IMG/VR virus record: IMGVR_UViG_2841255697_000002
Coordinates: 10,177-74,176 of that record
DNA from: a virus
Lineage: Duplodnaviria; Caudoviricetes
DNA: 64,000 bases
Strand: one strand, 5' to 3'
Each line of letters starts with the position of its first letter. Positions within the stretch are counted from its first letter, which is position 1. The translations under genes were made by a program, and so were the position numbers. The notes beneath the pieces were generated by a model. It searched no databases. It had not been told where the DNA came from and was given only the letters and a program-made list of their open reading frames with translations. Shown in pieces: positions 15,647 to 64,000 of this stretch.

Positions 15647-17260
15647 CTAACGTCTATGGACAAGCGGTGCAATGAGTTGACTTTCTTCCTTGTTGAACTT
15701 TTCGTCAGCCAACAGCTGTATCCCGTATAAGCCCATTCCCATCGCAGACCAGCGGTCTTTTCGTTTGGACGTTGTTTTAAATTGCATCCAGCCTCCGCTT
15801 GTCCCTTTTGTTTCAATACTTAAGATTTCTTTTCGTGCGTCTTCAGATTCTAAAAGTAGTACAGACTCTTCGCTCGAAAGATCCCTTTTTTCTTCAACCT
15901 TCATGGGGTACATGTGTAACCAGTTTTTCTCAACAAAAACCTTTACGGCAAATCCGAAACGATGGTTTAACTCAACGCATGGTTTCAATCCATATATAAT
16001 CGGTACGCCATTTGTCGTATCGATCCTTTTCATTGCCGTTTCGTCATTACGATCAATAAGTGGTGGATACCACTTTTGTTCTTCTACGGAAAAGTAATCC
16101 TTTGCAAGTTCATCCGCAAGGGCAGTACCGATAGTCATTGTATCCATATAAATATCGGTTATTTGTGGAAATTTCATTAAAATACCCCTTACGTTGCAAG
16201 CCTGTTTTCCAAATTCCATACCATTAAGCGAACGAATGTAGACAAGATCAGCCTCAACATGCTGGGAAAACCAGTGGAGCTTAAAGACGTAAATGATCGT
16301 ATTATCTTGTCCTTCAGAACGTGCAACGTCAACAGACATAATATATTGAAAGTTTGCAATACCTTTTGTTTCAATATGATCAAGATCAGCGCAATTTTGA
16401 AGAAGATTAAAATCAATAAACGCACCTTCGGCAAGCTTAGGAAATTCGGCTAAATATTCTTGTTGGAATTGGAAATCAGACATAACAGCTCTTTGTTGCT
16501 TAACAATTTCCTCGTCAAAAAGTTGACATCGAATACCAGTACGGTAATCAAGATCCATGGCAAAATATTGAGTATTGTTAGGCTCTGCCATTCGCTTAAA
16601 ATAATCAACCATTAATTCATAAAGATGATTGAAGCGATAAGATGCAGTCGAACACATTAACACTTTATTTCCTTCGTAGTCATCCATGTTTTTTCCAACT
16701 TCATAGTCACGTCTGCAAATTAACATTGGCTTAATAACGGCATCAATGATATCTTTATCGACATATGCGGCTTCATCAATGAGCACAATGTGAAGACGCG
16801 CGCCTCTTACACGTGCACCATCTGAACCGATTGGAAACCCTTCAATCCAAGAGCCACAATAAAATTCGACTTTTGCCCGCTGGGTGCTACAAACGAAATC
16901 AGACACTTCGGCGGCTAACGCAGGAGACATGTTACAAAGCTCATCATGAAATTTTTCCTGAATATCAATTTTGGCCTGTCTAAAAGCTGGCGCAATAATA
17001 CCAGCTTTTGTTCCGGGATATAGAAGGCAATAAACAACTAGACAGAGCACACCCATAAAAGATTTACCGAGTCCACGGCTCATAACAATGTTGGAAAAAG
17101 AGAAACGGAAAAAAGCGCGAATGATAACTTTTTGATAAATGTTAAGAGAAATACCAAGATATTCTTCACAAAAAACATCAGGATACTGACGGTAATAGCT
17201 AACACTTTCTAAGTAAAGTCTTTTTTTATTTCTGACAGCTTTTGAATCTTCAACACTCAT
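15647..17260 (-). CDS. terL: Terminase large subunit
   Basis: Walker A SRGLGKS, Walker B IVLIDEAA, FQQEYLAEF, nuclease SVDVAR and KDRWSA. Confidence 0.92.
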   Translation of the reverse strand: MSVEDSKAVRNKKRLYLESVSYYRQYPDVFCEEYLGISLNIYQKVIIRAFFRFSFSNIVMSRGLGKSFMGVLCLVVYCLLYPGTKAGIIAPAFRQAKIDIQEKFHDELCNMSPALAAEVSDFVCSTQRAKVEFYCGSWIEGFPIGSDGARVRGARLHIVLIDEAAYVDKDIIDAVIKPMLICRRDYEVGKNMDDYEGNKVLMCSTASYRFNHLYELMVDYFKRMAEPNNTQYFAMDLDYRTGIRCQLFDEEIVKQQRAVMSDFQFQQEYLAEFPKLAEGAFIDFNLLQNCADLDHIETKGIANFQYIMSVDVARSEGQDNTIIYVFKLHWFSQHVEADLVYIRSLNGMEFGKQACNVRGILMKFPQITDIYMDTMTIGTALADELAKDYFSVEEQKWYPPLIDRNDETAMKRIDTTNGVPIIYGLKPCVELNHRFGFAVKVFVEKNWLHMYPMKVEEKRDLSSEESVLLLESEDARKEILSIETKGTSGGWMQFKTTSKRKDRWSAMGMGLYGIQLLADEKFNKEESQLIAPLVHRR

Positions 17261-18093
17261 ACAGCCACCTCATCAGCAAAATGCCATTTATACCCGTATG
17301 CATGTTTATGTTTTCCAAGACATACGCTGCTGATATTTGAACTTGAAGATGCCCCAACTGAAACAGCAGCGTCTTTAATGCTTTTGTGGTATGCAATAAT
17401 CAAATTACTGTCAAGATCAATTTGATAAACTGGACGTACCCTCTTCTTTTCTTTTTTCATGGCTTCAACAATGTCTTCAGAATAATCTTTTTCAAAGACC
17501 CAACGATAACCTTTTACACTTTTGCATTTGCCATAACAGGATTTTGAAATATTTGCAGCGCATGAACCAACGGTTTGTGCTGCTTCATGAACAGATGAAA
17601 ATTTATTGATAATTGAAAAATCATCTTTATTAAGCTGCAAAACAGCCTTTTTATAGTTAGAATGAGATTCGGAAAGTTTTTTCCTTGTTTCCTCACTCCA
17701 ATGGACACCATAGTTAGGATGGTTTATACCGTTGAACCTGCCTACCAATGAGTCGGAAATTTTCTTCTTTGTTTGTTCAGACCAAACCTCACCATATGTT
17801 CCACCTAATTGTATATTGTAACCGTGGCTCGGATCGGTGGATTTATAAAGAGCAATGTATTCGCGTTCCTTTTTCTCGGCATCTTCAAAAGACAAACCTT
17901 CTTCTAAAACAGTCTGTTTAAAAGCATCCCACCCATAAATATCGATGTCAGCTCGTAGACTTTTATTTGAATAAGATTTTCCCCGCTTCCAACGTTGGGA
18001 TAAGGGCATCGATGTCATTCCAATATAACGAAGACCCGTTGGACTTTCGAGCATATAAATTTTAAATTTTCTATTTTTATTAACTTTTCCTAT
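17257..18093 (-). CDS. Free-standing GIY-YIG homing endonuclease with NUMOD3/NUMOD1 DNA-binding repeats
   Basis: KIY...RYIGMT, HGYN, SEETRKKLSES, two FxSxxEAA...NISxxC...GYxW modules; probable ATA start at 18093 after AAGGAGG (track start 18114). Confidence 0.88.
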   Translation of the reverse strand: MGKVNKNRKFKIYMLESPTGLRYIGMTSMPLSQRWKRGKSYSNKSLRADIDIYGWDAFKQTVLEEGLSFEDAEKKEREYIALYKSTDPSHGYNIQLGGTYGEVWSEQTKKKISDSLVGRFNGINHPNYGVHWSEETRKKLSESHSNYKKAVLQLNKDDFSIINKFSSVHEAAQTVGSCAANISKSCYGKCKSVKGYRWVFEKDYSEDIVEAMKKEKKRVRPVYQIDLDSNLIIAYHKSIKDAAVSVGASSSSNISSVCLGKHKHAYGYKWHFADEVAV

Positions 18094-18929
18094 GACAACA
18101 TCCTCCTTGCACATTCAATATAATTGTCCATTAGCGCATCGATTTCATCCTTATCGTATTCACGTTTAGGTGGAATAAATTCACCATCTTTAACCAGTTT
18201 GTCCATCCAGACAGTAAATTTTGATTGAGCAAACTCATCCCGTGCAGAGCGCTGTTTCTTAGTCCACTTCATACTTTCCAAGGTGCTTTGGATCAGTTCG
18301 GAGATCTTCTTTTCATCGTTAATATTGACCTCCTTGCCCTTTGCCCGACAAGTATCAATGCGATGCGCTTCAATCTCCAATGAGAGCAGACGCTTTAGAG
18401 AAGTTCGGTCAGCGCCCTCATTTATTTCATACAGATCCATATAGACCGCATAACGTCTGCGCAGGAACTCTCGCTCCAGTGGGCTAAACATATCGATCCA
18501 GGATAAGATTTCGTTGGCATATTTGTTTTCACCATCCTCACCGGCACTGTTCTGAAAATACTGTTTATAGATATCGTCCTGCTCACCCGATAAAGCGGTT
18601 CTTCTTAAAATATCCTCACCAATCTTCTTGTAACAGGGGAGGGAGATCAATTTAAAATACTGGCTTACCGGATCTTTTATAGCGTTTCCTCTGGGAAGTA
18701 CTTTTTTTCGTTCTTCAGTGCCATCAGGATTTATCACAATCTCATATTTTTCAGGGGTTTCCTTTGTTTTATTGGCCTCAGCTTTCTCAACCGCCTTTGT
18801 CCAGCATTCTTCAACAAACGGAAGCTCAGAATCTGGGTGGGCCAGCAGATAAGTCATTAAATCCTCTTTTGTCTTTATATCGTCTGGACGATTCCGGCGG
18901 TTAGCAGTTTTCTTTTTTCTTTCCGCCAA
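18090..18929 (-). CDS. Hypothetical protein, candidate terminase small subunit
   Basis: Position upstream of terL (endonuclease in between), helical. Confidence 0.4.
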   Translation of the reverse strand: MAERKKKTANRRNRPDDIKTKEDLMTYLLAHPDSELPFVEECWTKAVEKAEANKTKETPEKYEIVINPDGTEERKKVLPRGNAIKDPVSQYFKLISLPCYKKIGEDILRRTALSGEQDDIYKQYFQNSAGEDGENKYANEILSWIDMFSPLEREFLRRRYAVYMDLYEINEGADRTSLKRLLSLEIEAHRIDTCRAKGKEVNINDEKKISELIQSTLESMKWTKKQRSARDEFAQSKFTVWMDKLVKDGEFIPPKREYDKDEIDALMDNYIECARRMLS

Positions 18930-18955
18930 TATATCACATCCTTTCTTTTGGTATT

Positions 18956-19975: not shown

Positions 19976-20305
19976 TTATGAAAATTCTTCATATTCGTCG
20001 TTAATTTCACAAAAATTAATTTCATTTTCACGAATCATGCGTTCAGACCATTCCGTAATGACACCATCTTTTTTCGAAACGTCTATAGCATTCAACAGAT
20101 ATTGTCCCAGCATATCGAGAAGCTTCTCAACATTGTTCCCATGCTCGTCATTTTTACTGACCGGCAGGGAATAAGTGAAATGATCTGGATATGCAGCGAT
20201 CAGTTCCTCGCACAAGGCTTTTCTTTCCTCAAGTGTGTACGAATATGGAAGAACATGTTTTTCACCATTAATATATATATAATTATCCGTCAGCTTCAGT
20301 TTCAT
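19976..20305 (-). CDS. Hypothetical protein
   Basis: AGGAGG RBS, ATG at 20305 coupled to upstream stop. Confidence 0.6.
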   Translation of the reverse strand: MKLKLTDNYIYINGEKHVLPYSYTLEERKALCEELIAAYPDHFTYSLPVSKNDEHGNNVEKLLDMLGQYLLNAIDVSKKDGVITEWSERMIRENEINFCEINDEYEEFS

Positions 20306-20646
20306 CCCTCCTTTACATAATATGATATAGTTCTGCACGCTTGAAAAACGCATTGGCGCACCGTCCGTGACGATACATGTTCGATTTTAGCAATTGCCTT
20401 GTCGGAATAGCCGAGCATCCAATAGTAAAGACGTACACGCTGCCTGTCAGTAAGAAAAGCGTCATCAATCGCTTCTTCAAGGCAATAGATCAATAGCAGT
20501 ACATCAGTATTATCGGTCTGTTCAGCGAGAGATTTGATGGTATAGAAATTATGGAAAACCCGTTTAAGGTGAGTTGGATTTTGACAATAAGAATAGAAGT
20601 CGATTACATTTGATGGCTTATAAGATAACCGATTACGCTTTTTAAT
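20302..20646 (-). CDS. Sigma-70 region-4-like HTH regulator (candidate late activator), probable ATT start
   Basis: LTDRQR...GYSDKAIAKIEHVSSRTVRQ HTH; frame stays open upstream of track start to AGGAGGT-ACT-ATT-ATT. Confidence 0.65.
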   Translation of the reverse strand: MKKRNRLSYKPSNVIDFYSYCQNPTHLKRVFHNFYTIKSLAEQTDNTDVLLLIYCLEEAIDDAFLTDRQRVRLYYWMLGYSDKAIAKIEHVSSRTVRQCVFQACRTISYYVKEG

Positions 20647-20747: not shown

Positions 20748-20776
20748 ATTATACCACAAAAGCAACTTTATGTCAA
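20748..20776 (-). promoter_or_regulatory. SigA-type promoter (leftward)
   Basis: TTGACA-17-TATAAT with extended TG. Confidence 0.8.
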
Positions 20777-20826: not shown

Positions 20827-20855
20827 TTGACATTCTGTAAAGTATATGATATAAT
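20827..20855 (+). promoter_or_regulatory. SigA-type promoter (rightward, recombinase)
   Basis: TTGACA-17-TATAAT with extended TG. Confidence 0.8.
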
Positions 20856-21898: not shown

Positions 21899-22220
21899 AA
21901 AATCGCATGAAATGACGCATATTCGAGTTTAATTCAGCAAACCCTAATAAGGTTACCTAAAAAATGATTTCTCGTCAATTAGATACCATTTTGCTCGAAA
22001 AACGACCATTTCGAATGTATGTTTGATGTGCGTTTTCAGGAGTTGCAAGAATTACATAGCAAAATAACGCTATTTATGGAGTGGAGAATAGAGCAGAGAT
22101 CAATTGAGAATATCCAGACAAAAATGACCAAATCAAGGAGATACTTTAGCACATTACATCATTATGGGTAAGCCTTATACCCCTTATTATTATATATTAA
22201 TATATTAATTAATTATATAT

Positions 22221-22365
22221 ATATTTATATATTCACTACGTTCATATATAAATATTTTAGTGGTGTTAAAAATTTAGGGTAATTCATGGAAATATAATTA
22301 AAAACAATAATCCTGTTATATGAGTCCTGGTATAAAGACATTATTCACTGCGTTCATAATGTCTT
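22221..22365. repeat. Two hairpins with near-identical 11-nt loops and unrelated stems
   Basis: ATATTTATATAT-TCACTACGTTC-ATATATAAATAT and AAGACATTAT-TCACTGCGTTC-ATAATGTCTT. Confidence 0.75.
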
Positions 22366-22460
22366 ACTCGCTTTGTTTTCCTGTCGGAAAAGGCAAAGCT
22401 CATAATATAGGCCGACAAGAGAATAATTAGTGTCCAGATAATGATACGAACTCTTAACGT

Positions 22461-22490
22461 AAGATCACCTTCGTGTGGTCTTTTTTTATT
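22461..22490 (+). terminator. Intrinsic terminator
   Basis: AAGATCAC-CTTCGT-GTGGTCTT followed by T run. Confidence 0.55.
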
Positions 22491-22899
22491 GCCTGGAATA
22501 GAATAATCAAATCAATGAACAGGAACAACAGAAAAGGCCAACTGGAGAAATAACGTACAAGGATTGTTTGAATTAGTCAAAATATGAAAAGAGTAACGAT
22601 TAAGTAGGTTTAAGCAAAAAATACTATTATAAGATGAAGTTTTGAAAGAAGAGTATCAGATTAGGTTAAATCAGGTCTGGAATGAAAGATAATTTAGGAG
22701 AAAAGCAATACAATAAAAGTTAACTAAGAGCAGAAATTAAGGGCCAAAAATTTTTTGACGAAAGCTTTGAAAGCCAGTAAAAATATAGGTTGTAGTGTAA
22801 GGTACCCCCGGCCTGGAAAAGAAAGAAAACAATGTTTCATTTTAGTAAACACCTCTGGTAAATCTATAGACAATATTTATACTTTACAGAAGTACTGTT

Positions 22900-23400
22900 C
22901 TATCAATGGTAAAATGAAATTTAACGCATTTGATTATATTTATAAATAAAATTATGTTAAAAGAGAGATTAATTTATTTATTGAATACATATAATAATAT
23001 TCAATATTATATGTATTAATGTAATTACATAATGACAAATAAAGTTGTCAAAATCAATATATTACAAATGTAATATATAATTACATATGTCACATGCTAT
23101 TACACATGTAATACTTGAATAATATTTAATACATATATATTTAATGTGTCATAAAATCCTTAAGTATAACAAATGAGTATAAACGTTATTAATTAACTTG
23201 ATATATATAATATATTACAATTACTTATTGTTGGAATATGACTAATTGCTTTATTAAATTGCATTATTCACTATATTAATAGTAATTATGATATTCTTAA
23301 TATATTTACATATAAGAATATACAATAATACACATATCATAATACATTAAATATAATTAACAATCATATATACTTCACATAACTAAAGCAACCTTTTCTG
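22900..23400. other. Extremely AT-rich non-coding tract with TTACA/TGTAA palindromes (origin or packaging-end candidate)
   Basis: No credible ORF; TGTAATTACA, TATTACAAATGTAATA, TATTACACATGTAATA. Confidence 0.45.
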
Positions 23401-23540
23401 ATCTAAAATTAAAAGCCTTATATCGCTTATTAAAGGCATATAAGGAAGGCTTTATAATAACCGAACATTAGCGAACGTTTTCTTAAATTGCTGAAAACCG
23501 CATAGATAGGGGATTTAAAAGATAAATAAAAAAATAGAAA

Positions 23541-23578
23541 ATAACGTGTTGACATAATGGTTTTTTACGTGCTACAAT
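23541..23578 (+). promoter_or_regulatory. Early promoter with overlapping operator motif ATAACGTGTTG
   Basis: TTGACA(23549)-18-TACAAT with extended TG; A-rich UP element. Confidence 0.7.
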
Positions 23579-23582
23579 ATAG

Positions 23583-29702: not shown

Positions 29703-29778
29703 GGAGACTTAACTCAGCGGTTAGAGTGGGGAGCTTATATCTCTCTGGTCGGGGGTTCAAATCCCTCAGTCTCTACCA
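29703..29778 (+). tRNA. tRNA-Ile (anticodon UAU)
   Basis: Cloverleaf GGAGACT/AGTCTCT, anticodon arm GGGAG-CTTATAT-CTCTC, T loop TTCAAAT, encoded CCA. Confidence 0.88.
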
Positions 29779-33227: not shown

Positions 33228-33425
33228 GTGATTAAAATAAAAACAGAAAGCCACACCCCTGATATTTTTGCTGAAACAATTATCGATATACAAAACAGAT
33301 TAGTCAGACTTGAGAGAATAGAGCTTACTAATAAATTTTACCTAGAAACGCTTTTAGGGATTGAATATGAGACTAATGATAATAGCGGCGATGGAACAGA
33401 TAGTGCCGATAGAAGTAAGAACTAA
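33228..33425 (+). CDS. Small hypothetical protein
   Basis: AGGTGA RBS; start uncertain (possibly ATA 33237). Confidence 0.45.
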   Translation: MIKIKTESHTPDIFAETIIDIQNRLVRLERIELTNKFYLETLLGIEYETNDNSGDGTDSADRSKN

Positions 33426-35163: not shown

Positions 35164-35994
35164 ATTAATGAATTAAAAATATTTGAAAAAGAAGAATTCG
35201 GTCAAGTAAGATGTATGGAAATTGACAGTGAACCTTGGTTTGTTGGTAAAGATGTGGCAGAAGCGCTTGGCTACGAAAAGCCGACAGACAGCGTTAGAAA
35301 ACGAGTTGATGAGGAAGATAGAGGTATCTCCAAAATGGAGACCCCTTCGGGCATTCAAAATATGACGATCATCAATGAATCCGGTCTTTATAGTCTAATC
35401 CTGTCCAGCAAGCTCCCATCAGCCAAACAATTCAAACGCTGGGTGACAAGCGAAGTACTCCCAGAACTTAGAAAAACAGGGGGCTATAGTATTCAGAACT
35501 TAACAGGACTTTCACCAGAGACAGTAGCATTAATGAAAGCAACTGAAGCGCTCGTGATGATTGAAAAAAAGCAAAATGAGCTGGAATCGAAAGTCGACAA
35601 TACCAACCAAAGAATTGATAGTATCTCAGACCTCATTGTATTGAGTCCAAAGAACTGGAGAATCGAAAGTGAAAAGATTATTATGATGATTGCAGAAGCA
35701 AGAGGTGGAACACAATACATTGCTGTGACAAGAAAAGAGATTTACAATGCAATGGACCAAAGGTTAGGGAAAAGACTTTTTGACAGATTGAAACGTCGTC
35801 GCAGAAGAATGAGAATAAATGGAGCAACAGAAACAGCTATCAAGAGACTAAGCATTCTCGACATTATTGAAACATCCGATGATAGTAAAACCCTGATTGA
35901 AGGTTATCTTTTCATCCTTAAAGAAACTGCAATTAAATATGGGGTCGATAAAGTTATTATTGAAAATAAACCAGGATTAACTTTGGTTTCATAG
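35164..35994 (+). CDS. BRO-N family antirepressor, probable ATT start
   Basis: (I/M)NELKIFEKEEFGQVR...PWFVGKDVAEALGY...INESGLYSLILSSKLPSAKQFKRWVTSEVLP. Confidence 0.88.
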   Translation: MNELKIFEKEEFGQVRCMEIDSEPWFVGKDVAEALGYEKPTDSVRKRVDEEDRGISKMETPSGIQNMTIINESGLYSLILSSKLPSAKQFKRWVTSEVLPELRKTGGYSIQNLTGLSPETVALMKATEALVMIEKKQNELESKVDNTNQRIDSISDLIVLSPKNWRIESEKIIMMIAEARGGTQYIAVTRKEIYNAMDQRLGKRLFDRLKRRRRRMRINGATETAIKRLSILDIIETSDDSKTLIEGYLFILKETAIKYGVDKVIIENKPGLTLVS

Positions 35995-40960: not shown

Positions 40961-41140
40961 ATAGGAAAGATAGTCAGTAAAAAATTTCTTTGGTTTCCTA
41001 AAAAGATTTTGAGTAATTGGTATTGGTTTAGAAATGTGTATATTGTTAGAAAGTTAACCAGGATGGAAGTAGATGGCAGAGATACATACTATGAAAAAAA
41101 GAGATATTTTCTCTCAAAGGAGGATGCCTATGCGTGGTGA
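40961..41140 (+). CDS. Small protein (59 aa), probable ATA start
   Basis: AAGGAGG-7 nt-ATA; KKFLWFPKKI..WYWF; fills the gap between neighbours. Confidence 0.55.
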   Translation: MGKIVSKKFLWFPKKILSNWYWFRNVYIVRKLTRMEVDGRDTYYEKKRYFLSKEDAYAW

Positions 41141-45371: not shown

Positions 45372-46057
45372 AATATAAAACAGGAGATAAGGTGAGAATT
45401 AGGAAAGATTTAAATTGTGGAATCAAGTGTTATTCAAACGTTATAGAAGAAATGCTTCCTTTTGCAGGAAAAGAAGCAATGATAATGAAGGCATCTCCAA
45501 GAGCTTATATGGTCGATGCAGATCGTGGAAAATTTTTCTGGAACGATGAAATGTTTGAATGTGACTTCAAAATTGAAGGCTTCAGAAGTAACAATGCGAC
45601 CGTCTGCTTAATGAAAAAGGACGGAAAAGTTATCGCAAAAGGGATTGCAAAATGCTGTCCAGAGGATGATTACGATTTTGAATTTGGCATTCGATTAGCC
45701 TTTTTCAGAATGATGGGTCTGCCTACAGATGAGATGTTGCATGAAAGTGAGGATAGAGAAAGCACAGGACGCTTTGAGAATAATGAACTCGTCAGAGTTA
45801 CAGACACGGGTTGCCTTTACGACACCTATGGAGACTTTGTATTGGAATTTGCACCAGAAATGATTAAACATTTTACTTATGGAAAGGGTATAAGTGGCTA
45901 TGAACAAAAAAAAGATGTCTTTAAAATTTTAACCCAACATAATCACCTCACCTTTGGTGTCCGTCATCTTTTGATTATTCAGAATGTTCGAACAAATGAT
46001 GTGTATGTGATCGGTGAGGAAAGTGTTGAACGGTTTGATTTGGAGGCGATTGTATAG
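45368..46057 (+). CDS. Hypothetical protein
   Basis: MKYKTGDKVRIRKDL module; AKCCPEDDYDFEFG..LAF.R motif. Confidence 0.65.
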   Translation: MKYKTGDKVRIRKDLNCGIKCYSNVIEEMLPFAGKEAMIMKASPRAYMVDADRGKFFWNDEMFECDFKIEGFRSNNATVCLMKKDGKVIAKGIAKCCPEDDYDFEFGIRLAFFRMMGLPTDEMLHESEDRESTGRFENNELVRVTDTGCLYDTYGDFVLEFAPEMIKHFTYGKGISGYEQKKDVFKILTQHNHLTFGVRHLLIIQNVRTNDVYVIGEESVERFDLEAIV

Positions 46058-47070
46058 AGACAAAAATATTCAAAGAACTCAATATTGATGGTGAAAAGAA
46101 AAAGGTGCTTGCCACAAGCTACTCCCAGATCGACACTTTTCTTCAATGCCCCTATCGCTGGTATAGACTGTACCTTAAAGGGGAACGAAAAGAACATACT
46201 GCTGAGGCATTGGCATTAGGAGGGGCAGTACATAAAACACTGGAAACCTTTTTTACAGCCAGACAAAAAGGTGAGCATATTGAAGTTGCAGAGGCCAAAG
46301 AACTTCTTAAAGAGACAATGGATACCTATGATATCCCGTTTCTATCCGAAGAAAACCAGACATTAGCGACTGAACAGCATATGGAGATGATCACCAATCT
46401 CGCAGAAAATACAGGTCATCTCGCAGAATTTACACTTGACAAAGAAGTCATTGCATGTGAGAAAGACTTCATATACCGAATGCCATTGGATTTTGATGTC
46501 ATATGGGATGGCAAGATCATTTCAGAAATTTACATTATTGGTTCCATAGATCTTATTTTAAGGGATCAAAACGGCAGCCTGATCGCCGTGGATTTCAAAT
46601 CAGGAAAGAAAATTTTCGATGGTTCTAAATTAAAAAACAATCTTCAGTTACCAATTTACTCGTTAGTTATCAACGATCTTTACAAGCGTCTTCCGGCGCA
46701 AACACTTTACTATTTTACAAGGCTTGACACCTTCCAGAACGTTGAGCCACTATCAAAAAACGATCAGGAAAGCGAAATCATCCGGTTTAAAACAGGGAAA
46801 AGAGCAGGAGAAATCAAACATCAGCAAAAGAGCATTGATTCTGTTCATAAAGAGCTTCAAGACATTTTTAGATTACAGTACGCTTCTGGAATCGATGCGT
46901 ATCAATCTAAACCTACGCCGCTATGTTCATGGTGTCCTTTGGGAATGTATGAAGACAGAAGCTGCTCAAATGCGCAACAGTATATTCGAAAAGACTTGCC
47001 ACTCCCAGTCGGAATTAAGAATACACATAAAAGGGGGAATGCGAATGAACATAACCGAATGGGCGTATGA
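46054..47070 (+). CDS. PD-(D/E)XK nuclease (RecB/Cas4-like), probable ATA start
   Basis: SYSQIDTFLQCP, G.AVH..LE, GSIDLI, VDFKSG, QL.IY, CSWC...C. Confidence 0.85.
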   Translation: METKIFKELNIDGEKKKVLATSYSQIDTFLQCPYRWYRLYLKGERKEHTAEALALGGAVHKTLETFFTARQKGEHIEVAEAKELLKETMDTYDIPFLSEENQTLATEQHMEMITNLAENTGHLAEFTLDKEVIACEKDFIYRMPLDFDVIWDGKIISEIYIIGSIDLILRDQNGSLIAVDFKSGKKIFDGSKLKNNLQLPIYSLVINDLYKRLPAQTLYYFTRLDTFQNVEPLSKNDQESEIIRFKTGKRAGEIKHQQKSIDSVHKELQDIFRLQYASGIDAYQSKPTPLCSWCPLGMYEDRSCSNAQQYIRKDLPLPVGIKNTHKRGNANEHNRMGV

Positions 47071-55446: not shown

Positions 55447-55641
55447 ATGCTAAAAAGAAATGAAAAAGGAAACCTAAACTTCGATAGCCTTGGCTTTGAG
55501 CTGTTTGCTGGCGGCTTATTTGATAAGTGTAAGAATGTACAGGAGTTAGAATGGCTTGAAGAGCGAATGGTTGAAATTATAGAAAATACTGAGGAAACTT
55601 TTGAAGAAGAATTGGAGGTTGAAAATGCCCGTACAGATTGA
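55447..55641 (+). CDS. Small acidic protein
   Basis: AGGAGG RBS. Confidence 0.55.
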   Translation: MLKRNEKGNLNFDSLGFELFAGGLFDKCKNVQELEWLEERMVEIIENTEETFEEELEVENARTD

Positions 55642-55694
55642 TATGGAAATGCCCAGAAGCTGCCGGAGCCGTGGGAGGAAAAGGAAAATATAAA

Positions 55695-56078: not shown

Positions 56079-56378
56079 TATGGAAAGATATAGAAAAGCG
56101 GCACGAATTGTACATGGATACTATCAATACATCAGACCGCATCGATGAACACCCGCCTTGTGTAAAAGTGTTGAGCCAGATGAAGAAGATCAATGGTATT
56201 ACACCAGCGAATTTTTAGGCGTTGAGGTTATGAGCATTACAGCGGATGACTTAGATGACGCAAAATACTGGTTTGCGTGTATGGTACGAAATCGGCTCAG
56301 CGATGGAATCGATTGGAGAGAAGATACTTGCAAAGAGATAGAGAATTATATGCGGAAAAACTGAGAAGGAGAATAAAA

Positions 56379-56657
56379 ATGAAAAGAAGAATTGTCGGTA
56401 CTTTAATAGGATTATGTGCAATGGTATTTTTAATTGGAGGTTGCCAAAGCACTCGGAGGGCTGTCAAAAATACCTCTTCGGAAATTGCTGGTTTAAATAG
56501 AAAGGTTATTGTTTATAGTATGAATGGTGAAGAATTAGCCAGTTATGAAGGACGCTTTGATATTGAAGAGAATGAGAATGGCAACAAAGTGCTTTTCGAG
56601 AAGGATGGCAAACGTATTGTGATTTACAATGGAACCGTTATAGCAGAAGAAAAATAA
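56379..56657 (+). CDS. Putative lipoprotein
   Basis: Signal peptide with lipobox LIGGC. Confidence 0.65.
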   Translation: MKRRIVGTLIGLCAMVFLIGGCQSTRRAVKNTSSEIAGLNRKVIVYSMNGEELASYEGRFDIEENENGNKVLFEKDGKRIVIYNGTVIAEEK

Positions 56658-56666
56658 GGAGCAATT

Positions 56667-56858
56667 ATGAAAACCAGAGTAAGACGCTACAACAATAAAA
56701 AGAAAAGACAGTACGAACAAGGCAAATATCGTGAAATTCTAGATGCAGCAAACCGAAACGAAATTAACGACTATGATGATGATTGGGCTTTTGATCCAGA
56801 GGATTTCAGTAATGTAGATCATTCATATGATCGAATCGATTGGGGGGATCTTTTATAG
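56667..56858 (+). CDS. Small basic/acidic protein
   Basis: AAGGAG RBS. Confidence 0.55.
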   Translation: MKTRVRRYNNKKKRQYEQGKYREILDAANRNEINDYDDDWAFDPEDFSNVDHSYDRIDWGDLL

Positions 56859-59800
56859 CGGTAACATATGTACCCCTTCATGTTCATAGTTCAGAAGGGA
56901 GTATTTTAGACTCAATTATAAAAACTGATGAATTAATTGATAGGGCAGAAGAACTCTTAATGCCAGCAGTAGCAATAACGGATCATGGATCAATGGCAGC
57001 TGCGGTTAAGCATTATCAAAACTGTAGAGAAAAAGGTATAAAACCTATCATTGGGCTAGAAGCCTATATGACAGACGATTTGACTGTCAAAGATACAAGT
57101 TCAAAATATTTTCATTTACTTTTACTAGCCAAAAACAACAAAGGCTATTTTAATCTTAAAAAACTTTCTTCCATCGGTTATATCGATGGATTCTACAGAA
57201 AACCTCGAATTGATTTTCAAACACTTTCAAAATATTCAGAAGGAATCATTTGTTGCTCGGCGTGTCTTGCAGGGGAATTACCAAGACTGATAACAGAGGA
57301 TGCTCATCAATCAGAGATCCTTAATTTAATATCAAAATACCAGAGTCTTTTTAAAGAGGACTATTATTTAGAAATTCAATCTTCAGAAAACCCAGATCAG
57401 ATAAAAGTCAATAAAAAACTGGTTGAGATTGGCTCAAAACTTGATATTGATGTCATTGTAACGACCGATGTTCATTTCCTAAACAAGAAAGATTTTGCGG
57501 CGCATAACACATTCATTAATATCAGCCAGGATCGCGATACAGAAAATTATCAATATTGCTATCTTCAAACCTACACAGAGATATATGACATCCTCACCAA
57601 GCAAATAGGTGAATCAGCAGCAATAAGGTGTCTTGAGAATACAAAGGTTGTTGCGAATAAATGCGATGTCGAAATTGAGCTTGGGAATAGCTATTTGCCG
57701 CACATCGAATTGCCAGATGGTTTTAATTCAGAATACGACTGGATGGTATTTCTGGTAAAAGAGGGTCTTAAAGAAAAAGGAATTATGAAACTACCAAACA
57801 AAGACCAATACATTCAGAGAATTAAGGATGAACTCTATGTCATCAAAACAAAAGATTTTCAGGGATATTTCTTGATTTTGAGAGATCTGATTATGGAGGC
57901 AAGAAGAAACGGTATCCCCATCGGCCCAGGAAGAGGGAGTGCAGGAAATTGTATCGTTGCATACCTAATGGGGATTACACAAGTCGATTCCATCAAGTAT
58001 AATCTGGATTTTAGTCGATTTTTAACCATTGAACGCAAAGATCTTTGTGATATCGACGTAGACGTAAGCACATCAAGGCGGCAGGAGTTCATCGATTTAA
58101 TCACTCAAAAATATGGAGAAGAAACTGTAGCTCAAGTTGCTACCTTCGGAACACTGGCTTCAAAAGCCGTTCTTGACGCTGTTGGAAAGGTTATGGAAGT
58201 ACCGAAGGATAACATAGAAATGCTCAAGAAAAAAGTCGATGAAAGTAAGGGTGTTCGTAGTCTCATGGTTAAAGGCAAGGATTATTACGAGAAAAACAAA
58301 GACTTTTTAATCATGTGCAGCAAATTAGAGAACCTACCCCGGTCAATGGGATGTCACGCTGGTGCGCTCTGTATTGCAGGGAATAATCAACCTATGGCTC
58401 ATTATGCTCCCGTTATACGTAATAAAGACGGAAATATCATGACACAATATGAGATGCACAATGTTCAGGATGTCGGCTTAGTAAAATATGATATGTTAGG
58501 ATTATCAAACTTAGATGTCATTGCGGATTGTCTGGAAAGCATCGGGAGCAGTTACTACGAATTTGCCTATCCAGATGACGATCCAGAAACCTATGAAATG
58601 CTTAGCAGGGGCGATACGGTAGGGGTCTTTCAGGCAGAATCCGCTTTTATGACCAATGTTATTACAAAGATTAAACCCAAAGATTTGAATGAATTGGCAG
58701 CCTGCATTGCCATTGGTCGGCCTGACACCATCAAGTATCTCGATCCCTACGCCAATCGAAAGTTTGGGCGTGAAGAAATTACATACGTTCATAACGAATT
58801 GTCCGAAGTTCTAAAAGACACATACGGATGTATCATCTATCAGGAACAGATTTTATCAATCGTTAAGCATTATGGCGGTTTTAGTGATGGAGAGGCAGAT
58901 ACATTCAGGCGAGCGTTAGGAAAAAAGATACCAGAACTCGTTAAAGAACAATCTGAAAAATTCAAATCAAGAGCGTTAGAAAAAGGCTACGATGACAAAA
59001 CGGTTGAAGATCTTTACCAGCTTCTTGTGGACAATGGTGATTACAGTTTTAATGCCGGACATGCCACTGCTTATGCGATGATCAGCTATTGGACAGCATA
59101 CCTCAAGTGTCATTATCCGTTGCAATTCATGTCAGCCGTATTAAATAACCAGAAAAAAGAAAGCGGACAGACTGACTATGATGGTGTCGCAAAATACATC
59201 TCAGCAATTAGAGAAACAGGGATTGAGATCACCGTGCCGGATATTAATGTCTCCGGGACGTGGTTTACTCCAGATATTCATAATAATCGAATTGCTTATG
59301 GCTTAGGGTTGGTTAAAGGCCTAAGTGAAAAAGGAATCGATAAAATCTTTCAAGAAAGACCATTTTCAACATTTCAAGATTACCTGTGTCGGGTGGGGAT
59401 GGAGACATCAAAATCTGACACGATTTCTCTTATAAAATCTGGTGCATTCTGCCAGATGATTTCTCAAAACAAAGTTCAACAATTCAAATACTTCTATAAG
59501 GTCCGATTCGATCAAAAGAAAGAAGAACCCAAGCCTATTCAAAAAATCAATAAAAATCATATTAAGTATCTACTTGATAACGGGTTGATTACACCAAGCC
59601 ATCAGACAAACAAGGAAAAATGTATTGAGATTATGAATGCGCATCGTCGGATTTTGGGATGGAAGCAATTCAAAGAAAAGTATATGGGCGGTACAGAATT
59701 AGATTGGGAAATGCAGACGCTCAATGCGTTTATTACAGGTGACCCCTTTGAAGGTGTTATACTACCAGATTGGTCGAAGATACCCATTAGTGGTTATGGA

Positions 59801-60073
59801 GTGTTTGGCGGTGTCATTTCTCTTGTTAATCCCACCGTCATTAAAAAAGGAAAAAATAAAGGGAAGAAAATGGGCTTTATTAATGTTGATACAGTGCATG
59901 GAACCATTGATACCGTTGTTTTCTTTGATGCGTGGTCACAATATGTGGATTTGTTGAAGGTTGGGAACTGTGTTGTAGTTACTGGAGAAAAGACAGAAGA
60001 GCTTAATTGTACTTTGAAACGAATAGAGCGATTACCAGATTATTTAAGAAGAACAGAAGATATACAGAGGTGA
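56855..60073 (+). CDS. dnaE: DNA polymerase III alpha subunit (family C), probable ATA start
   Basis: PHP LHVHS/AITDHG, GRGSAG, DIDVD, GVFQ, YQEQ, YSFN..H..AY, C-terminal OB fold; no intein seen. Confidence 0.93.
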   Translation: MAVTYVPLHVHSSEGSILDSIIKTDELIDRAEELLMPAVAITDHGSMAAAVKHYQNCREKGIKPIIGLEAYMTDDLTVKDTSSKYFHLLLLAKNNKGYFNLKKLSSIGYIDGFYRKPRIDFQTLSKYSEGIICCSACLAGELPRLITEDAHQSEILNLISKYQSLFKEDYYLEIQSSENPDQIKVNKKLVEIGSKLDIDVIVTTDVHFLNKKDFAAHNTFINISQDRDTENYQYCYLQTYTEIYDILTKQIGESAAIRCLENTKVVANKCDVEIELGNSYLPHIELPDGFNSEYDWMVFLVKEGLKEKGIMKLPNKDQYIQRIKDELYVIKTKDFQGYFLILRDLIMEARRNGIPIGPGRGSAGNCIVAYLMGITQVDSIKYNLDFSRFLTIERKDLCDIDVDVSTSRRQEFIDLITQKYGEETVAQVATFGTLASKAVLDAVGKVMEVPKDNIEMLKKKVDESKGVRSLMVKGKDYYEKNKDFLIMCSKLENLPRSMGCHAGALCIAGNNQPMAHYAPVIRNKDGNIMTQYEMHNVQDVGLVKYDMLGLSNLDVIADCLESIGSSYYEFAYPDDDPETYEMLSRGDTVGVFQAESAFMTNVITKIKPKDLNELAACIAIGRPDTIKYLDPYANRKFGREEITYVHNELSEVLKDTYGCIIYQEQILSIVKHYGGFSDGEADTFRRALGKKIPELVKEQSEKFKSRALEKGYDDKTVEDLYQLLVDNGDYSFNAGHATAYAMISYWTAYLKCHYPLQFMSAVLNNQKKESGQTDYDGVAKYISAIRETGIEITVPDINVSGTWFTPDIHNNRIAYGLGLVKGLSEKGIDKIFQERPFSTFQDYLCRVGMETSKSDTISLIKSGAFCQMISQNKVQQFKYFYKVRFDQKKEEPKPIQKINKNHIKYLLDNGLITPSHQTNKEKCIEIMNAHRRILGWKQFKEKYMGGTELDWEMQTLNAFITGDPFEGVILPDWSKIPISGYGVFGGVISLVNPTVIKKGKNKGKKMGFINVDTVHGTIDTVVFFDAWSQYVDLLKVGNCVVVTGEKTEELNCTLKRIERLPDYLRRTEDIQR

Positions 60074-60075
60074 CT

Positions 60076-60345
60076 ATGAGAAGAATATTTAGCAAAAACT
60101 ATTTGACAGAAACATTATGTTTGCCAGAAGGGGCATTACAAAATCACGTGGTGATTGATACAGCCGATTTAACCACACATGAAATTGTATTTAAAGATAT
60201 GGATGGCCAGTTCTACAAAACGCACTATTCAGCATTAAATAAAAGCGCACTATGGCCGACTGATGGCAAAGGAAACGTGGAATGTGTTGAAGTTGAGAAA
60301 GAAGAAATTATTTTTATTCATTGGAAGGAGAAGAAAGATGCCTAG
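60076..60345 (+). CDS. Hypothetical protein
   Basis: GAGGTGA RBS then ATG. Confidence 0.6.
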   Translation: MRRIFSKNYLTETLCLPEGALQNHVVIDTADLTTHEIVFKDMDGQFYKTHYSALNKSALWPTDGKGNVECVEVEKEEIIFIHWKEKKDA

Positions 60346-60568
60346 AATTCGTTGTGAAACATTAGTCGATTGTGTTCAGATTAGCGATTTTGACGAGAAG
60401 GATCAAAAACTTTATGAGTATCTCCAAACCGAAGCAGGAATGAAAGAGGTAAACGAGCGTATGAAAGATGTGTGGCTAGAGTGCCTTGATGAAATATTCG
60501 GTGAAGTTGACGACCTGGGTGTGGAATGCTATTTCACACTAACGAATGATGAGGTGACCAATGCGTAA
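60338..60568 (+). CDS. Hypothetical protein
   Basis: Coupled ORF with RBS. Confidence 0.55.
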   Translation: MPRIRCETLVDCVQISDFDEKDQKLYEYLQTEAGMKEVNERMKDVWLECLDEIFGEVDDLGVECYFTLTNDEVTNA

Positions 60569-61655
60569 GCTTGCAACAGTAAGAGAGATATCAGAGGTTA
60601 AACCAATAAAAAACGCAGACCGTATTGAAGTCTGCGTTGTGGATGGTTGGGAAGTAGTATGTAAGGTCAATGAATTTAAGCCCGGTGACAAAGTTGTGTA
60701 TATCGAAATCGACAGTATTGTCCCGGATTGTAAAACATTTGAGTTTTTAAGAGATCGGAAATTCAGAGTTAAAACAATCAAGCTCAGGGGACAGATATCA
60801 CAGGGGCTAATAATACCAATGGATATTTTACCACCAAGAACTTATAAGGTTGGAGAAGATGTAACTGATATTTTAAACATTAAGAAATATGACCCACAAG
60901 AGGAAAAAGAAAGAAAACTCATTAAACAAAATCCACCAAAAGGAAAAGTTCAGAAATGGTTAATGCGCTTTGGCTGGTTTGAAAGGTATTACCAAAATAA
61001 ACAGGAAAAAATATTGCAAGCAAGAAGATTTCCAGACTGGATTAAAAAAACAGATGAAGAAAGAATCCAGAATATGAAACCTGAGTTTGATAGGTTTGTT
61101 CAAGAGGGGGTTGAATTTGTTGCGACCGAAAAAATAGATGGGTGTTCTGCCACATATGGATTAAAAAAAGTGAATAATAAATTTGAATTTGTTGTTTGCA
61201 GCCGTAATGTGAGATTAAATGAACCAGACGATAACTGTTACTGGAACGTTGCAAAGAAATATGATATTAGAGCAGTCCTGGAAAGTTTATATTATACGTT
61301 CGGTGGAAATTACGATGGTGGGAATATTGTAATTCAAGGTGAAATTGTTGGGCCAGGTATCCAGGGAAATAAATATGAACGTGACACTTGTGAGTTTTAT
61401 GCTTTCAATTTAATTATTGACGGATGTAGAACGAGTTATTTTTTCATGTCAAATAGGTTGGTGTCAAAGAATATTCCATGTGTTCCTTATATTGACTACA
61501 TAACCCTGCCAGATTCCATTCAAAAGTTAGTAGAAATGTCAAAAGGGAGATCGAAACTTGCGAATATTAGTCGTGAAGGTATTGTTTGTAGAAGTGACGA
61601 TATCAGCTTTAAGGTAATCAATCCAGATTTTTTACTGAAGGAGGACACAGAATGA
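60561..61655 (+). CDS. ATP-dependent RNA ligase (DRB0094/Rnl2-like)
   Basis: MRKLAT...NADRIE N-domain, KTDEERIQN, TEKIDG, CSRN, QGE..GPGIQGN, REGIV, SFKVIN. Confidence 0.88.
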   Translation: MRKLATVREISEVKPIKNADRIEVCVVDGWEVVCKVNEFKPGDKVVYIEIDSIVPDCKTFEFLRDRKFRVKTIKLRGQISQGLIIPMDILPPRTYKVGEDVTDILNIKKYDPQEEKERKLIKQNPPKGKVQKWLMRFGWFERYYQNKQEKILQARRFPDWIKKTDEERIQNMKPEFDRFVQEGVEFVATEKIDGCSATYGLKKVNNKFEFVVCSRNVRLNEPDDNCYWNVAKKYDIRAVLESLYYTFGGNYDGGNIVIQGEIVGPGIQGNKYERDTCEFYAFNLIIDGCRTSYFFMSNRLVSKNIPCVPYIDYITLPDSIQKLVEMSKGRSKLANISREGIVCRSDDISFKVINPDFLLKEDTE

Positions 61656-61882
61656 TAAGAGAAGATCGATGGTATATTCACAACATAATAACTATCTTAA
61701 TGATTTTGGTGCTTTTGCTTGATTTTTCCGGGGCTTTTTCACCCTATATCGGTACAGCAATCATCCTGCTACTATTTATGTTTGGATATCTTATTTGTTA
61801 TGACAGTATACCCAAATATGCCTTTGGGCTTATTGGTGGATATGCGGTCGGGATGTGTATTGCAGTATCGCTTTTGTCATAA
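61652..61882 (+). CDS. Small membrane protein
   Basis: Three hydrophobic segments. Confidence 0.55.
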   Translation: MIREDRWYIHNIITILMILVLLLDFSGAFSPYIGTAIILLLFMFGYLICYDSIPKYAFGLIGGYAVGMCIAVSLLS

Positions 61883-61905
61883 AAGGATACAGGAGGATAA
61901 AATAA

Positions 61906-62361
61906 ATGTTGAGTAAGCCAAACGCAGGATGGACAGTAGTTACTATCGGTAAAATGGAATTTAATGCAAGCTACCTGACAGATATTCCAAAAGATTGTTT
62001 AATAGCCGCTAAAAATTATCTTTCTGGAGAGCCATTGTTAGCATTATTCTTTGATTTGGAAGAAGAAGGCACATTGTATGTGTTGTCAGATAAATTAGGA
62101 ACCTTTGTCATTACTGAAACTGACGAGTGGGATGATGAAATTAATGATTTTAAATATAAAACAGATCGCATTGGCATTTCTGGTGAGGCTCTAATCCAGG
62201 AAATTGTACAGGATATTAAAAGATACATTGATGAATGGGCTGGCTGGCTTTGTTATGACGAACTTGATCCAAACAAACGTGTAGAAATAGAAAAATTGCT
62301 AAAGGAAGTCTCAGAAGCACAGAAAACATACAAAAAGGAGTATACAAATTATTGGAAATAA
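61906..62361 (+). CDS. Hypothetical protein
   Basis: MLSKPNAGW...ASYLTDIP motif. Confidence 0.65.
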   Translation: MLSKPNAGWTVVTIGKMEFNASYLTDIPKDCLIAAKNYLSGEPLLALFFDLEEEGTLYVLSDKLGTFVITETDEWDDEINDFKYKTDRIGISGEALIQEIVQDIKRYIDEWAGWLCYDELDPNKRVEIEKLLKEVSEAQKTYKKEYTNYWK

Positions 62362-62912
62362 CAAAACATGCAGAAGAAAGATACACAGAGCGATTAATGG
62401 ATTATTCCGATAAACAAGATATTGCTACCTATATCGCTCAAAATAAAGATTTAATCGCGGAACGTATCACAAAGATGGTTAACTATGGAGAGCTGATCTA
62501 TGAAGGTAAAATTCGTGATGGAAACTATGTAAAGGTCATTTTAAAGGACAATTGGGTTGTCCTTCTTGACCGCAAAGGCGATAAGGTCATTACATTATAT
62601 AAAATCTGTTTAATCAAAAATGATGATGAGTTTAATAAGCTCTTTGTCGCTAAAATGAAGGAAAAAATATCCGATATCAAGTCAAGTCAGACAAAAGCTA
62701 AAGAACAAACTTCAAAAAAGAAGCAGAGTTACCTTGATAGTATCAATGAAAATAAACAGAGAATAAAAGAATATGAGACACTTATTCTTGAATTAAGAAA
62801 GTCAAACGCAGCACATCAGGACGAGATCGACCATATGGATGCGGAAGTCAATTGTATTGATCTGGAGCTGAAGCACGCTATTGAAGACCTCGTGGCGACA
62901 AAATTATTTTAA
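62352..62912 (+). CDS. Protein with RelE/DUF4258-like N-terminus and coiled-coil C-terminus
   Basis: ITKHAEERY.ER ... VITLY. Confidence 0.5.
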   Translation: MEITKHAEERYTERLMDYSDKQDIATYIAQNKDLIAERITKMVNYGELIYEGKIRDGNYVKVILKDNWVVLLDRKGDKVITLYKICLIKNDDEFNKLFVAKMKEKISDIKSSQTKAKEQTSKKKQSYLDSINENKQRIKEYETLILELRKSNAAHQDEIDHMDAEVNCIDLELKHAIEDLVATKLF

Positions 62913-62924
62913 AGAGGCGAGAAT

Positions 62925-63449
62925 ATGAATAACGACATTATTGAATTTATAAAAACAAAAAATAAAATATGTGAAGACCATGTAGGTGATTGCGGTAGAT
63001 GTTCGCTTTATGATCCAGAAGAGGGTTTAAACTGTGAGGATTTTGAAACAAAAGATCCAGAAGAACTTTGCAGGCGGGTAAATCTTTATCGAATTGGACA
63101 AACGATAGAGGCGTTAGGTGAAAGAATTGAAAAACGTTCAGATATCGAATATAACAGGACTTCATCTATCGTCTTAAGTCAACTGCTTGATTTATATGAT
63201 TTTGCGATTTACGATAATGAAACATTTAATCTAACAGATAGTAGAATTGTTAGAATATATTATGATGGAAGAACTCAGTGGTTTGATTTCGGCATCAAAA
63301 ATGACCTATACAACAACTCGGAAAATGCAAAGGATTTTCTTAATTCAGAATTATTGGATGCCGAAGTCCTTGAAATCAAGGTTGATGACGGACTTGGGGT
63401 CTTGAATATTTACACGAATTTCTATCCAGAGGACGGTGATGAAGAATAG
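62925..63449 (+). CDS. Hypothetical protein
   Basis: Intact ORF with GAGG RBS. Confidence 0.6.
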   Translation: MNNDIIEFIKTKNKICEDHVGDCGRCSLYDPEEGLNCEDFETKDPEELCRRVNLYRIGQTIEALGERIEKRSDIEYNRTSSIVLSQLLDLYDFAIYDNETFNLTDSRIVRIYYDGRTQWFDFGIKNDLYNNSENAKDFLNSELLDAEVLEIKVDDGLGVLNIYTNFYPEDGDEE

Positions 63450-64000
63450 CAGAAAATAATGGAAAGCGATTTGAATCAAACATCCAGAAGAGTTGTGAAA
63501 AACAGGGGGTTCTTTTTGAACGATACAAAGATAACGGAAAGTTCGGGTTCGGAGAAAACACAATGACACGGTTCAGCTCAGAAAATCCTTGTGACGGACA
63601 TATTTTTGATGGCAGCACTCTATATTATGTAGAATTAAAAAGCACTACAGGTTCATCTATGAGTTTTAATCAGCCACCAGATGTCCAGGAGAAAGGAAAA
63701 ACAAAGCCAATGATTAAGACTCATCAAGTCAAAGCTCTATTAGAACGAAGCGCTTATGAAAATGTTGTGTGTGGATTGATCTTGGATTATGCAGATCGTC
63801 AGACCAGAAAAGAATACATTCCTGGAGGAACCTATTTTATAGAAATTAACACCTGGTTTGAATGGGCAAAGGATTGTGGTAAGAAGAGTATGAATTTGCA
63901 AGATGTTCAAAGAATCGGTGTCAAGATTGACCGCAATAAACTGAAAACGAACTATCGATATAATATTAAGAAATTACTTGAAGAAATAAAGAAAGGGTGA
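63446..64000 (+). CDS. recU: RecU-like Holliday junction resolvase, probable ATA start
   Basis: N.GKRFE..I..S (upstream of track start), NPCD, VELKST, IKTHQV..L. Confidence 0.8.
   Translation: MAENNGKRFESNIQKSCEKQGVLFERYKDNGKFGFGENTMTRFSSENPCDGHIFDGSTLYYVELKSTTGSSMSFNQPPDVQEKGKTKPMIKTHQVKALLERSAYENVVCGLILDYADRQTRKEYIPGGTYFIEINTWFEWAKDCGKKSMNLQDVQRIGVKIDRNKLKTNYRYNIKKLLEEIKKG

Follow-up and report, generated by a model that had tools for sequence, protein, structure and literature searches.

In Escherichia coli, infC and pcnB start at AUU codons, against which initiation factor 3 (IF3) discriminates. In Bacillus subtilis, Peijnenburg et al. reportedly described AUA in 1990 as a restart codon in translational coupling. 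According to Kohl et al. (Nat Commun 2026, PMC13009471), Staphylococcus aureus uses such codons behind extended Shine–Dalgarno sequences (SDs) in infC (AUA), ccpN (AUA, also in B. subtilis), cvfC1 (AUU) and citZ (AUA), and in S. aureus reporters AUA or AUU with an extended SD gave about 10–30% of the AUG level. IF3 acts against non-canonical starts (PMC9723500). That a weak start behind a strong SD keeps a protein low is already known. Here we describe a 64,000-nucleotide stretch of phage DNA (the window; bases 10177–74176 of the 74,176-base IMG/VR record IMGVR_UViG_2841255697_000002) in which, to judge from its sequence, about eight genes very likely start at a near-cognate codon, which is AUA in five or six genes and AUU in two.

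With E. coli infC these genes would share a weak start codon that limits output and IF3 as the discriminator; infC, however, forms an autoregulatory loop, and no feedback is evident in the phage. The Peijnenburg system resembles the phage in the use of AUA, in Bacillus, by ribosomes coming from an upstream cistron, which fits four stop–start overlaps of the form ATAG in the window. That system was an engineered penP-lacZ fusion, whereas the phage sites are natural, each has its own strong SD, and related gut-phage genes use ATA without overlap. The Bacillota genes of Kohl et al. (PMC13009471) have the same near-cognate AUA and AUU codons, the same strong or extended SDs and the same proper spacing. 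In that account they are single chromosomal genes with ribosome-profiling and reporter proof, and their weak codon is conserved among relatives (PMC13009471), whereas the phage starts are known from sequence alone and show direct conservation at the DNA level only in distant RecU-like genes. What the phage adds is number and setting: about eight of about 100 genes in a single phage, mainly in DNA metabolism and regulation, where nucleases, polymerase and regulators predominate; an ATAG overlap at four of them; and a family-wide count, with repeated switches of start codon, in RecU-like resolvases. Among the open-access papers searched, none dealt with ATA as a systematic start codon in phages, and neither the SPP1 genome paper nor the TP712 paper mentions ATA starts.

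The putative non-canonical starts are listed below. SD strength is the duplex energy with the 3′ end of 16S rRNA, in kcal/mol, and the spacing of the GGAGG-equivalent was read directly from the sequence; the last entry on each line is the nearest in-frame canonical codon (ATG, GTG or TTG) with its own SD energy.

17257..18093, minus strand: GIY-YIG/NUMOD homing endonuclease; ATA 18093-18091 overlapping TAG 18092-18090; SD AAGGAGG at 18108-18102, -11.3; ATG 18114, -3.0
20302..20646, minus strand: sigma-like regulator (region-4/GerE-type helix-turn-helix); ATT 20646; GGAGG at 20658-20654, -11.6; TTG 20493, -2.4
33237..33425, plus strand: open reading frame (ORF) of 62 amino acids (aa), itself only a candidate gene; ATA 33237, 8 nt after AGGTGAT, -15.0; GTG 33228, -4.4
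35164..35994, plus strand: BRO-N/anti-repressor; ATT 35164, -9.8; ATG 35215, -4.4
40961..41140, plus strand: 59-aa ORF; ATA 40961, 7 nt after GGAGG (40949-40953), -13.6; TTG 41009, -2.8
46054..47070, plus strand: PD-(D/E)XK exonuclease; ATA 46054 with ATAG overlap; GGAGG at 46042-46046, -12.0; GTG 46105, -7.7
56855..60073, plus strand: DnaE-type DNA polymerase III alpha; ATA 56855 with ATAG overlap; SD GGGGGGATC at 56842-56850, -16.4; TTG 56840, -5.7
63446..64000, plus strand: RecU-fold Holliday-junction resolvase; ATA 63446 with ATAG overlap; SD GAGG..GGTGAT at 63429-63440, -15.8; ATG 63563, -6.6

Seven of these codons, all but that of the 62-aa ORF, had been named in an earlier model-made reading of the letters (the original prediction). 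All seven are present, and behind each there is, as claimed, an SD that is strong (−9.8 to −16.4 kcal/mol) and lies 7–9 nt upstream. The accompanying claim that no well-placed ATG, GTG or TTG was available stood only in part: the nearest in-frame canonical codons are SD-poor (−2.4 to −7.7 kcal/mol), but three of them had been passed over, namely an ATG without SD 21 nt upstream of the GIY-YIG ATA, a TTG 15 nt upstream of the dnaE ATA, and a GTG 51 nt downstream of the PD-(D/E)XK ATA. The eighth candidate, new here, has its strong SD at ATA 33237 rather than at the in-frame GTG. Compared with 90 canonical starts, the eight non-canonical ones have the stronger SDs (median −12.8 versus −10.9 kcal/mol; one-sided Mann–Whitney P = 0.013). 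Rule-based start calls for 103 ORFs gave 71 ATG, 18 TTG, 5 GTG, 7 ATA (one of them, 29518, dubious) and 2 ATT; the same ORFs end in TAA (48), TGA (30) or TAG (25).

The ATA signal at the 5′ ends of genes is real. Codons with an SD of −10.5 kcal/mol or stronger were counted within pre-start zones, each running from the 5′ boundary of an ORF to its first SD-backed canonical start, and the expectation was taken from the interiors of the same genes (103 coding-strand ORFs, 1882 zone codons, 21,306 internal codons). Seven ATA codons with so strong an SD were found where 0.36 were expected (Poisson P = 1e-7), and no other codon exceeded three; repeating the count without regard to strand gave 7 versus 0.45 expected (P = 4.9e-7). 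Within genes, ATA makes up 1.46% of codons, and only 2/312 of these had an SD of that strength. One of the seven zone sites, ATA 60085, is not a start, as it lies 9 nt past a good ATG at 60076; six remain, ATA 33237 among them. The same test gave 3 ATA against 0.35 expected (P = 0.0055), plus two ATT sites, one of which heads a metallophosphoesterase gene, in an unrelated whole gut-phage record of 78.5 kb whose RecU-like gene starts at ATA (G001), and 0 ATA against 0.33, with 3 ATT against 0.51, in 80 kb taken from a record whose RecU-like gene starts at ATG (G005).

Other candidates were dropped. ATA 29518 lies within the tRNA cluster and its ORF has no family match. Orphan SDs at 38291, 55614 and 20311 each belong to a nearby ATG, that at 20311 to an ATGA overlap at 20305 and that at 55614 to a 22-codon ORF (55625-55693) which has its own GGAGG and ATG and lies just upstream of the HNH endonuclease gene. 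A GGAGG-only scan, tallies with a wide SD window and a both-strand tally of all ORFs were set aside as too noisy, as was a codon-blind predictor based on SDs only, which mostly chose the codon beside a real ATG.

Four ATA starts (18093, 46054, 56855 and 63446) overlap the TAG stop of the upstream gene as ATAG, as had been noted, and stand beside 11 ATGA and 2 GTGA overlaps in the rule-based calls for the whole record. Each of the six ATA starts has an upstream stop no more than 13 nt away, so that reinitiation by ribosomes finishing the upstream gene may add to initiation.

That these codons are real starts, as first proposed, is upheld with differing strength for the PD-(D/E)XK, RecU-like, BRO and sigma-like genes and the 59-aa ORF, in all of which a start at the downstream canonical codon would remove residues that are conserved or aligned to a profile; in GIY-YIG and dnaE an ATA start is probable only. 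Alignment of homologues, the check suggested at the outset, places a Met or Leu start on the ATA or ATT codon, or an N-terminal length matching it, in the first four of these genes. The N-termini said to lie upstream of the first ATG in RecU and BRO-N are indeed there, with aligned residues preceding the first canonical codon (residue 40 and residue 18, respectively).

The PD-(D/E)XK frame opens only five codons upstream of its ATA, with no canonical codon in that interval. Among all 67 database homologues found at E ≤1e-10, 32 have Met exactly on the ATA column (METKIFK against IETKIFK in the window), 13 start 1–16 residues upstream of it, 3 start between the ATA and V18 columns, 3 start on V18 (the GTG; these include the closest relative, at 96% identity), and 16 start further downstream. 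The 17 residues ahead of the GTG are conserved, and two IMG/VR loci (L224 and L225) have ATG at the same codon. A relative found in run X2, about 97% identical nearby, is without 692 bases (45343-46034) that make up most of the gene upstream of PD-(D/E)XK, and has kept the nuclease's own SD and start region; several other skips separate it from the window phage, for example from 53696 to 55857. Of 835 differing letters between contigs of four runs and 44001–64000, none of the 40 listed falls at 46054, 56855 or 63446, which speaks neither for nor against the ATA codons.

From its opening at 35155, the BRO frame is without a canonical codon until ATG 35215. Pfam Bro-N matches residues 14–100 (profile 1–96), and four PHROG profiles align from residue 2–3 to profile position 2–5. 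The sigma-like frame is likewise empty of ATG, GTG and TTG from its opening at 20727 to TTG 20493 (residue 52), a start which would remove 51 residues. Most of the 96–127-aa proteins among its 18 homologues fall within a few residues of the query when numbered from the ATT, and the phrog_3512 profile aligns at positions 35–110 to residues 34–108. A relative at 97% identity retains both Ile codons and has been called 22 codons further upstream, probably within the leader. About 100 nt upstream of the ATT lies the following element:

20748..20776, minus strand: promoter-like site, TTGACA-17-TATAAT plus TG, 12/12 to consensus

This match suggests that the sigma-like gene may be a strongly transcribed but weakly translated first gene. 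A second 12/12 promoter-like site with TG (20827-20855, plus strand) stands back to back with it and faces the integrase.

The RecU-like frame opens one codon before the ATA. In an alignment of 17 rows, the first residue of 11/16 homologues is a Met or Leu on the ATA column. Two others begin near residue 24, and the remaining three, among them the two most similar to the window's protein (94% and 92% identity), have been called from an internal Met, which gives 145-aa proteins. These truncated calls fit relatives that would likewise be without a canonical start. The AlphaFold model (pLDDT 88.1, pTM 0.85) has a confident helix at 5–19 and a strand at 23–26, both predicted within the part that a canonical start would delete. 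All top ten Foldseek matches are RecU/PrfA structures (1rzn, 5fdk, 1y1o, 1zp7 and 2fco), with probability 1.00 and TM 0.58–0.77 by target, and the protein matches phrog_843, 'Holliday junction resolvase', at 5.4e-21. No Pfam family was reached at E up to 0.01, PF03838 included, and a PDB sequence search with the profile gave no match; since the fold is present but PF03838 is not reached, the protein is named RecU-like, or RecU-fold, here.

The wider family was sampled at 134 RecU-like loci from IMG/VR and metagenomes, 17 of them without the N-terminal motif, yielding with the window's own gene 72 distinct proteins. By a fixed rule their start codons are ATG (34), ATA (28), TTG (6), GTG (2), ATT (1) and ATC (1), so that 30/72, the window's counted, are non-canonical. 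As in the window, the ATA stands three codons ahead of an N-x-G-K-x-F-E motif, often as ATA GCA. The nearest relative with DNA in hand (60% identity) has TTG at the window's ATA codon, and locus L145 reads TTG GCA GAG AAT AAT GGA against ATA GCA GAA AAT AAT GGA in the window. In L198 (ATA) and L154 (ATC) an in-frame stop immediately precedes the start codon, so no alternative start is possible.

On a quick maximum-likelihood tree, the division into canonical and non-canonical starts requires 5 changes, at least 3 of them forced by well-supported branches, and none of 500 shuffles was as low; because the tree is unrooted and has long branches, these changes may be either gains or losses of ATA. 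A large clade from gut phages is non-canonical in 28/34 rows, whereas the window's gene sits among relatives with TTG, ATG or GTG, making its ATA an event separate from that of the clade. Together these patterns suggest that in RecU-like resolvases the weak start has been kept or re-invented several times.

Two genes have less certain starts. The GIY-YIG gene, with Pfam matches to GIY-YIG, NUMOD1 and NUMOD3, shows tblastn homology beginning at residues 8–19 as counted from ATG 18114, residue 8 being the ATA, and a Lactobacillus phage homologue begins four residues inside the ATA-started protein; from this alignment it probably starts at ATA. In DnaE the PHP domain begins at residue 8. Most of the homologues listed (41–61% identity) have 1–5 residues before the aromatic of the [YF]-x-x-LH motif, where ATA would give 4 and TTG 9, and relatives at 96% and 86% identity have Ile at the ATA codon but have been called from TTG; an ATA start is again the probable reading of these N-termini. 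For the 59-aa ORF the ATA start is supported by a single PHROG profile, phrog_11031, whose alignment begins at residue 6, ahead of TTG 41009 (residue 17); the gene that follows has its best start at ATG 41130.

Several observations weigh against the view that about eight genes use such starts. GIY-YIG and dnaE each have an in-frame canonical codon just upstream that has no SD of its own, and the dnaE TTG is the one used by gene callers in the two close relatives. Homologues of the 59-aa ORF seem to be about 11 residues longer at the N-terminus. The 62-aa ORF has no Pfam or PHROG match, and no homologue of it was found. No RNA run was listed for 54001–64000. ATT showed no enrichment in the zone test (1 against 1.09 expected), so the two ATT cases rest on homology. 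That close relatives keep the ATA is something we infer from protein calls that are truncated or carry Ile. In the gut-phage clade most RecU-like ATA starts are separated from the nearest upstream ORF end by at least 54 nt, or no such end occurs within 150 nt; as the ATAG overlap is not kept there, coupling is not required. Nor are all nuclease and replication genes weak-start genes, for HNH endonuclease, helicase and primase are canonical in the start calls.

The plainest alternative is that each protein starts at its nearest canonical codon (ATG 18114, TTG 56840, GTG 46105, ATG 63563, ATG 35215, TTG 20493 or TTG 41009), the ATA and ATT being ordinary Ile codons or untranslated. Gene callers have chosen these very codons in relatives of dnaE (two), PD-(D/E)XK (three) and the RecU-like protein (two), and in GIY-YIG and dnaE such a start, being upstream, would cost no conserved residue. 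Yet the SDs of these codons are weak or missing, and TTG 56840, like GTG 33228 of the 62-aa ORF, falls inside the SD itself. Elsewhere the cost would be 39 homologue-aligned residues in the RecU-like protein, the modelled helix 5–19 among them, 17 in PD-(D/E)XK, 17 in BRO and 51 in the sigma-like protein. Judged by these conserved N-termini, canonical starts are excluded for four genes, and as an account of the whole set they are unlikely. It is very improbable that the starts are instead mutated ATG codons of a decaying prophage, or sequencing errors, in genes that are dead or misread. The record is labelled a provirus, and ATG to ATA is a single transition; however, all eight ORFs are intact with their strong SDs preserved, and ATA and ATT are the only single-base neighbours of ATG seen. 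Independent assemblies, moreover, have Ile at the dnaE codon (the relatives at 96% and 86% identity) and, at the protein level, keep non-canonical RecU-like and PD-(D/E)XK starts, and ATA persists across a deep RecU-like clade. In the four ATAG cases the same A completes the upstream TAG stop; were it G, the upstream genes would extend by 1–53 codons.

Special decoding, with ATA reassigned to Met or a phage tRNA acting as an AUA-reading initiator, is scarcely credible, although the phage does encode a tRNA with the matching anticodon and a weak pair atop its acceptor stem:

29703..29778, plus strand: tRNA, anticodon UAU (reads AUA); G1.U72, C11:G24, G29:C41, A30:U40, G31:C39

Internal ATA codons align with Ile, as ATT and ATC do (37% Ile against 8% Met over 17 codons in dnaE; 50% Ile over 4 codons in PD-(D/E)XK), so reassignment to Met is excluded. 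Bacterial initiator tRNAs are marked by a 1:72 mismatch, three consecutive G:C pairs at 29–31:39–41, and A11:U24. By these criteria tRNA(UAU) does not look like an initiator: A30:U40 breaks the G:C run, position 11:24 is C:G, and there is no 1:72 mismatch; G1.U72 is found in the phage tRNA-Gln as well. The tRNA was not found in five other phage records, four with an ATA- or ATT-start RecU-like gene and one with an ATG start, in which tRNA(CAU) genes are present. It is probably an elongator tRNA-Ile.

Near-cognate initiation, then, could proceed as follows. The strong and often extended SD would anchor the 30S subunit with AUA or AUU in the P site, where the host initiator tRNA (anticodon CAU) could pair with two of the three bases. 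Proofreading by IF3 would make initiation inefficient, and less protein would be made per mRNA than from an AUG start; at the ATAG overlaps, ribosomes ending the upstream gene may reinitiate, as in ATGA coupling. The use of the host initiator tRNA, the reduced output and the coupling are what we infer for the phage. The products that would be throttled may plausibly do harm or be required only at low levels. They are a homing endonuclease, a PD-(D/E)XK exonuclease, a RecU-type resolvase, DnaE, a sigma-like regulator, a BRO anti-repressor and one or two small proteins. Such throttling would fit the stronger SDs at the non-canonical starts.

The idea that nucleases, polymerase and regulators are gated as a group is not supported as it was stated; the HNH endonuclease (55695-56075), helicase and primase use ATG or TTG. 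Another reading, in which the weak-start genes are a deliberate translational class whose joint output follows start-codon stringency as IF3 levels or the state of the ribosomes change in the course of infection or induction, is doubtful. Were it true, it would amount to a translation-level timer for nucleases, polymerase and regulators, and a footprint of that selection would be seen in RecU-like genes, where unrelated phages have repeatedly gained or retained ATA; a bolder version would have the phage tRNA(UAU) take part in AUA initiation.

Standard gene callers accept only ATG, GTG and TTG, and the nearest database relatives are therefore mis-called: RecU-like proteins lose 39 residues and PD-(D/E)XK 17, whereas dnaE gains 5 and the sigma-like gene runs 22 residues into its leader. 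Pipelines for phages of Bacillota-type hosts should permit ATA and ATT behind strong SDs. The pattern suggests that phages may routinely hold down nucleases, replicative polymerase and regulators at the translation step, and the phage offers a small natural collection of AUA starts, some overlapping a stop and others not, for work on near-cognate initiation in Gram-positives.

The window looks phage-like throughout, and tail-type ORFs also occur in the 10 kb upstream of the window. The remaining layout of the window is as follows.

Roughly 1-20700, minus strand: structural and packaging block, with distal tail protein, a 2050-aa tape-measure-like protein, portal and large terminase
Between the minus-strand structural block and the plus-strand early block: integrase
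Plus strand: early and replication block, with anti-restriction protein, RtcB, anti-repressors, Sak4-like protein, DnaB-like helicase and primase
Plus strand, further genes of the same block: PD-(D/E)XK exonuclease, ribonucleotide reductase, HNH endonuclease, DnaE, RNA ligase and RecU-like resolvase

The tblastn matches of DnaE, the heavy use of AAGGAGG-type ribosome-binding sites and the RecU fold of the resolvase point to a Bacillota-type (Gram-positive) host, though to no particular species. The best DnaE matches are human-faecal 'Bacteriophage sp.' contigs and Bacillus and Rossellomorea phages, at about 38% identity. When 8 kb and 4 kb of the window were searched for near-identical sequence among GenBank phages, none matched; a single-query dnaE search returned only relatives at ≤37% identity (≤24% in IMG/VR, 25–37% in GTDB genomes), a single-query RecU-like search of IMG/VR gave none that was confirmed, and a degenerate DNA pattern for the DnaE N-terminus had no match in IMG/VR. 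The integrase lies in mid-record, flanked by phage genes, an odd position given the provirus label of the record, and a second integrase-like gene lies at 36116-37084. Just past the integrase, the stretch 22000–24000 is very poor in G+C (28.6%; about 38% elsewhere) and contains no convincing ORF.

Genes for tRNA-Gln(UUG) (31215-31290), tRNA-Trp(CCA) (31296-31371) and the tRNA-Ile(UAU) described above flank an RtcB-type ligase (29991-31193; phrog_1075, 1.8e-139), and a second RNA ligase lies at 60561-61652; the tRNAs and the two ligases are a possible tRNA repair module. Directly downstream of tRNA-Ile, 29826-29930 matches the 'drum' RNA family (RF02958, 53.1 bits, gathering score 43). Upstream, 29390-29459 holds a tRNA-like element (Rfam tRNA, 43.5 bits) not called by ARAGORN, with a shortened anticodon arm of about 3 bp of stem and a 6-nt loop.

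Further observations concern gut-phage records. Two records carry a tRNA(CAU) (L212, 2136-2208; L213, 1501-1574) that is initiator-like in its apparent 1:72 mismatch (C.U and A.C, respectively) and is without the three G:C pairs in the anticodon stem. In G001 (L235, 13014-15635, minus strand) an 874-aa protein matching Pfam RdRP (PF05183), and resembling the SPbeta YonO type of RNA polymerase, has an apparent ATA start. The gene after it, for a protein of 280 aa (L235, 12185-13024), has an ATT start whose context is seen again in G005.

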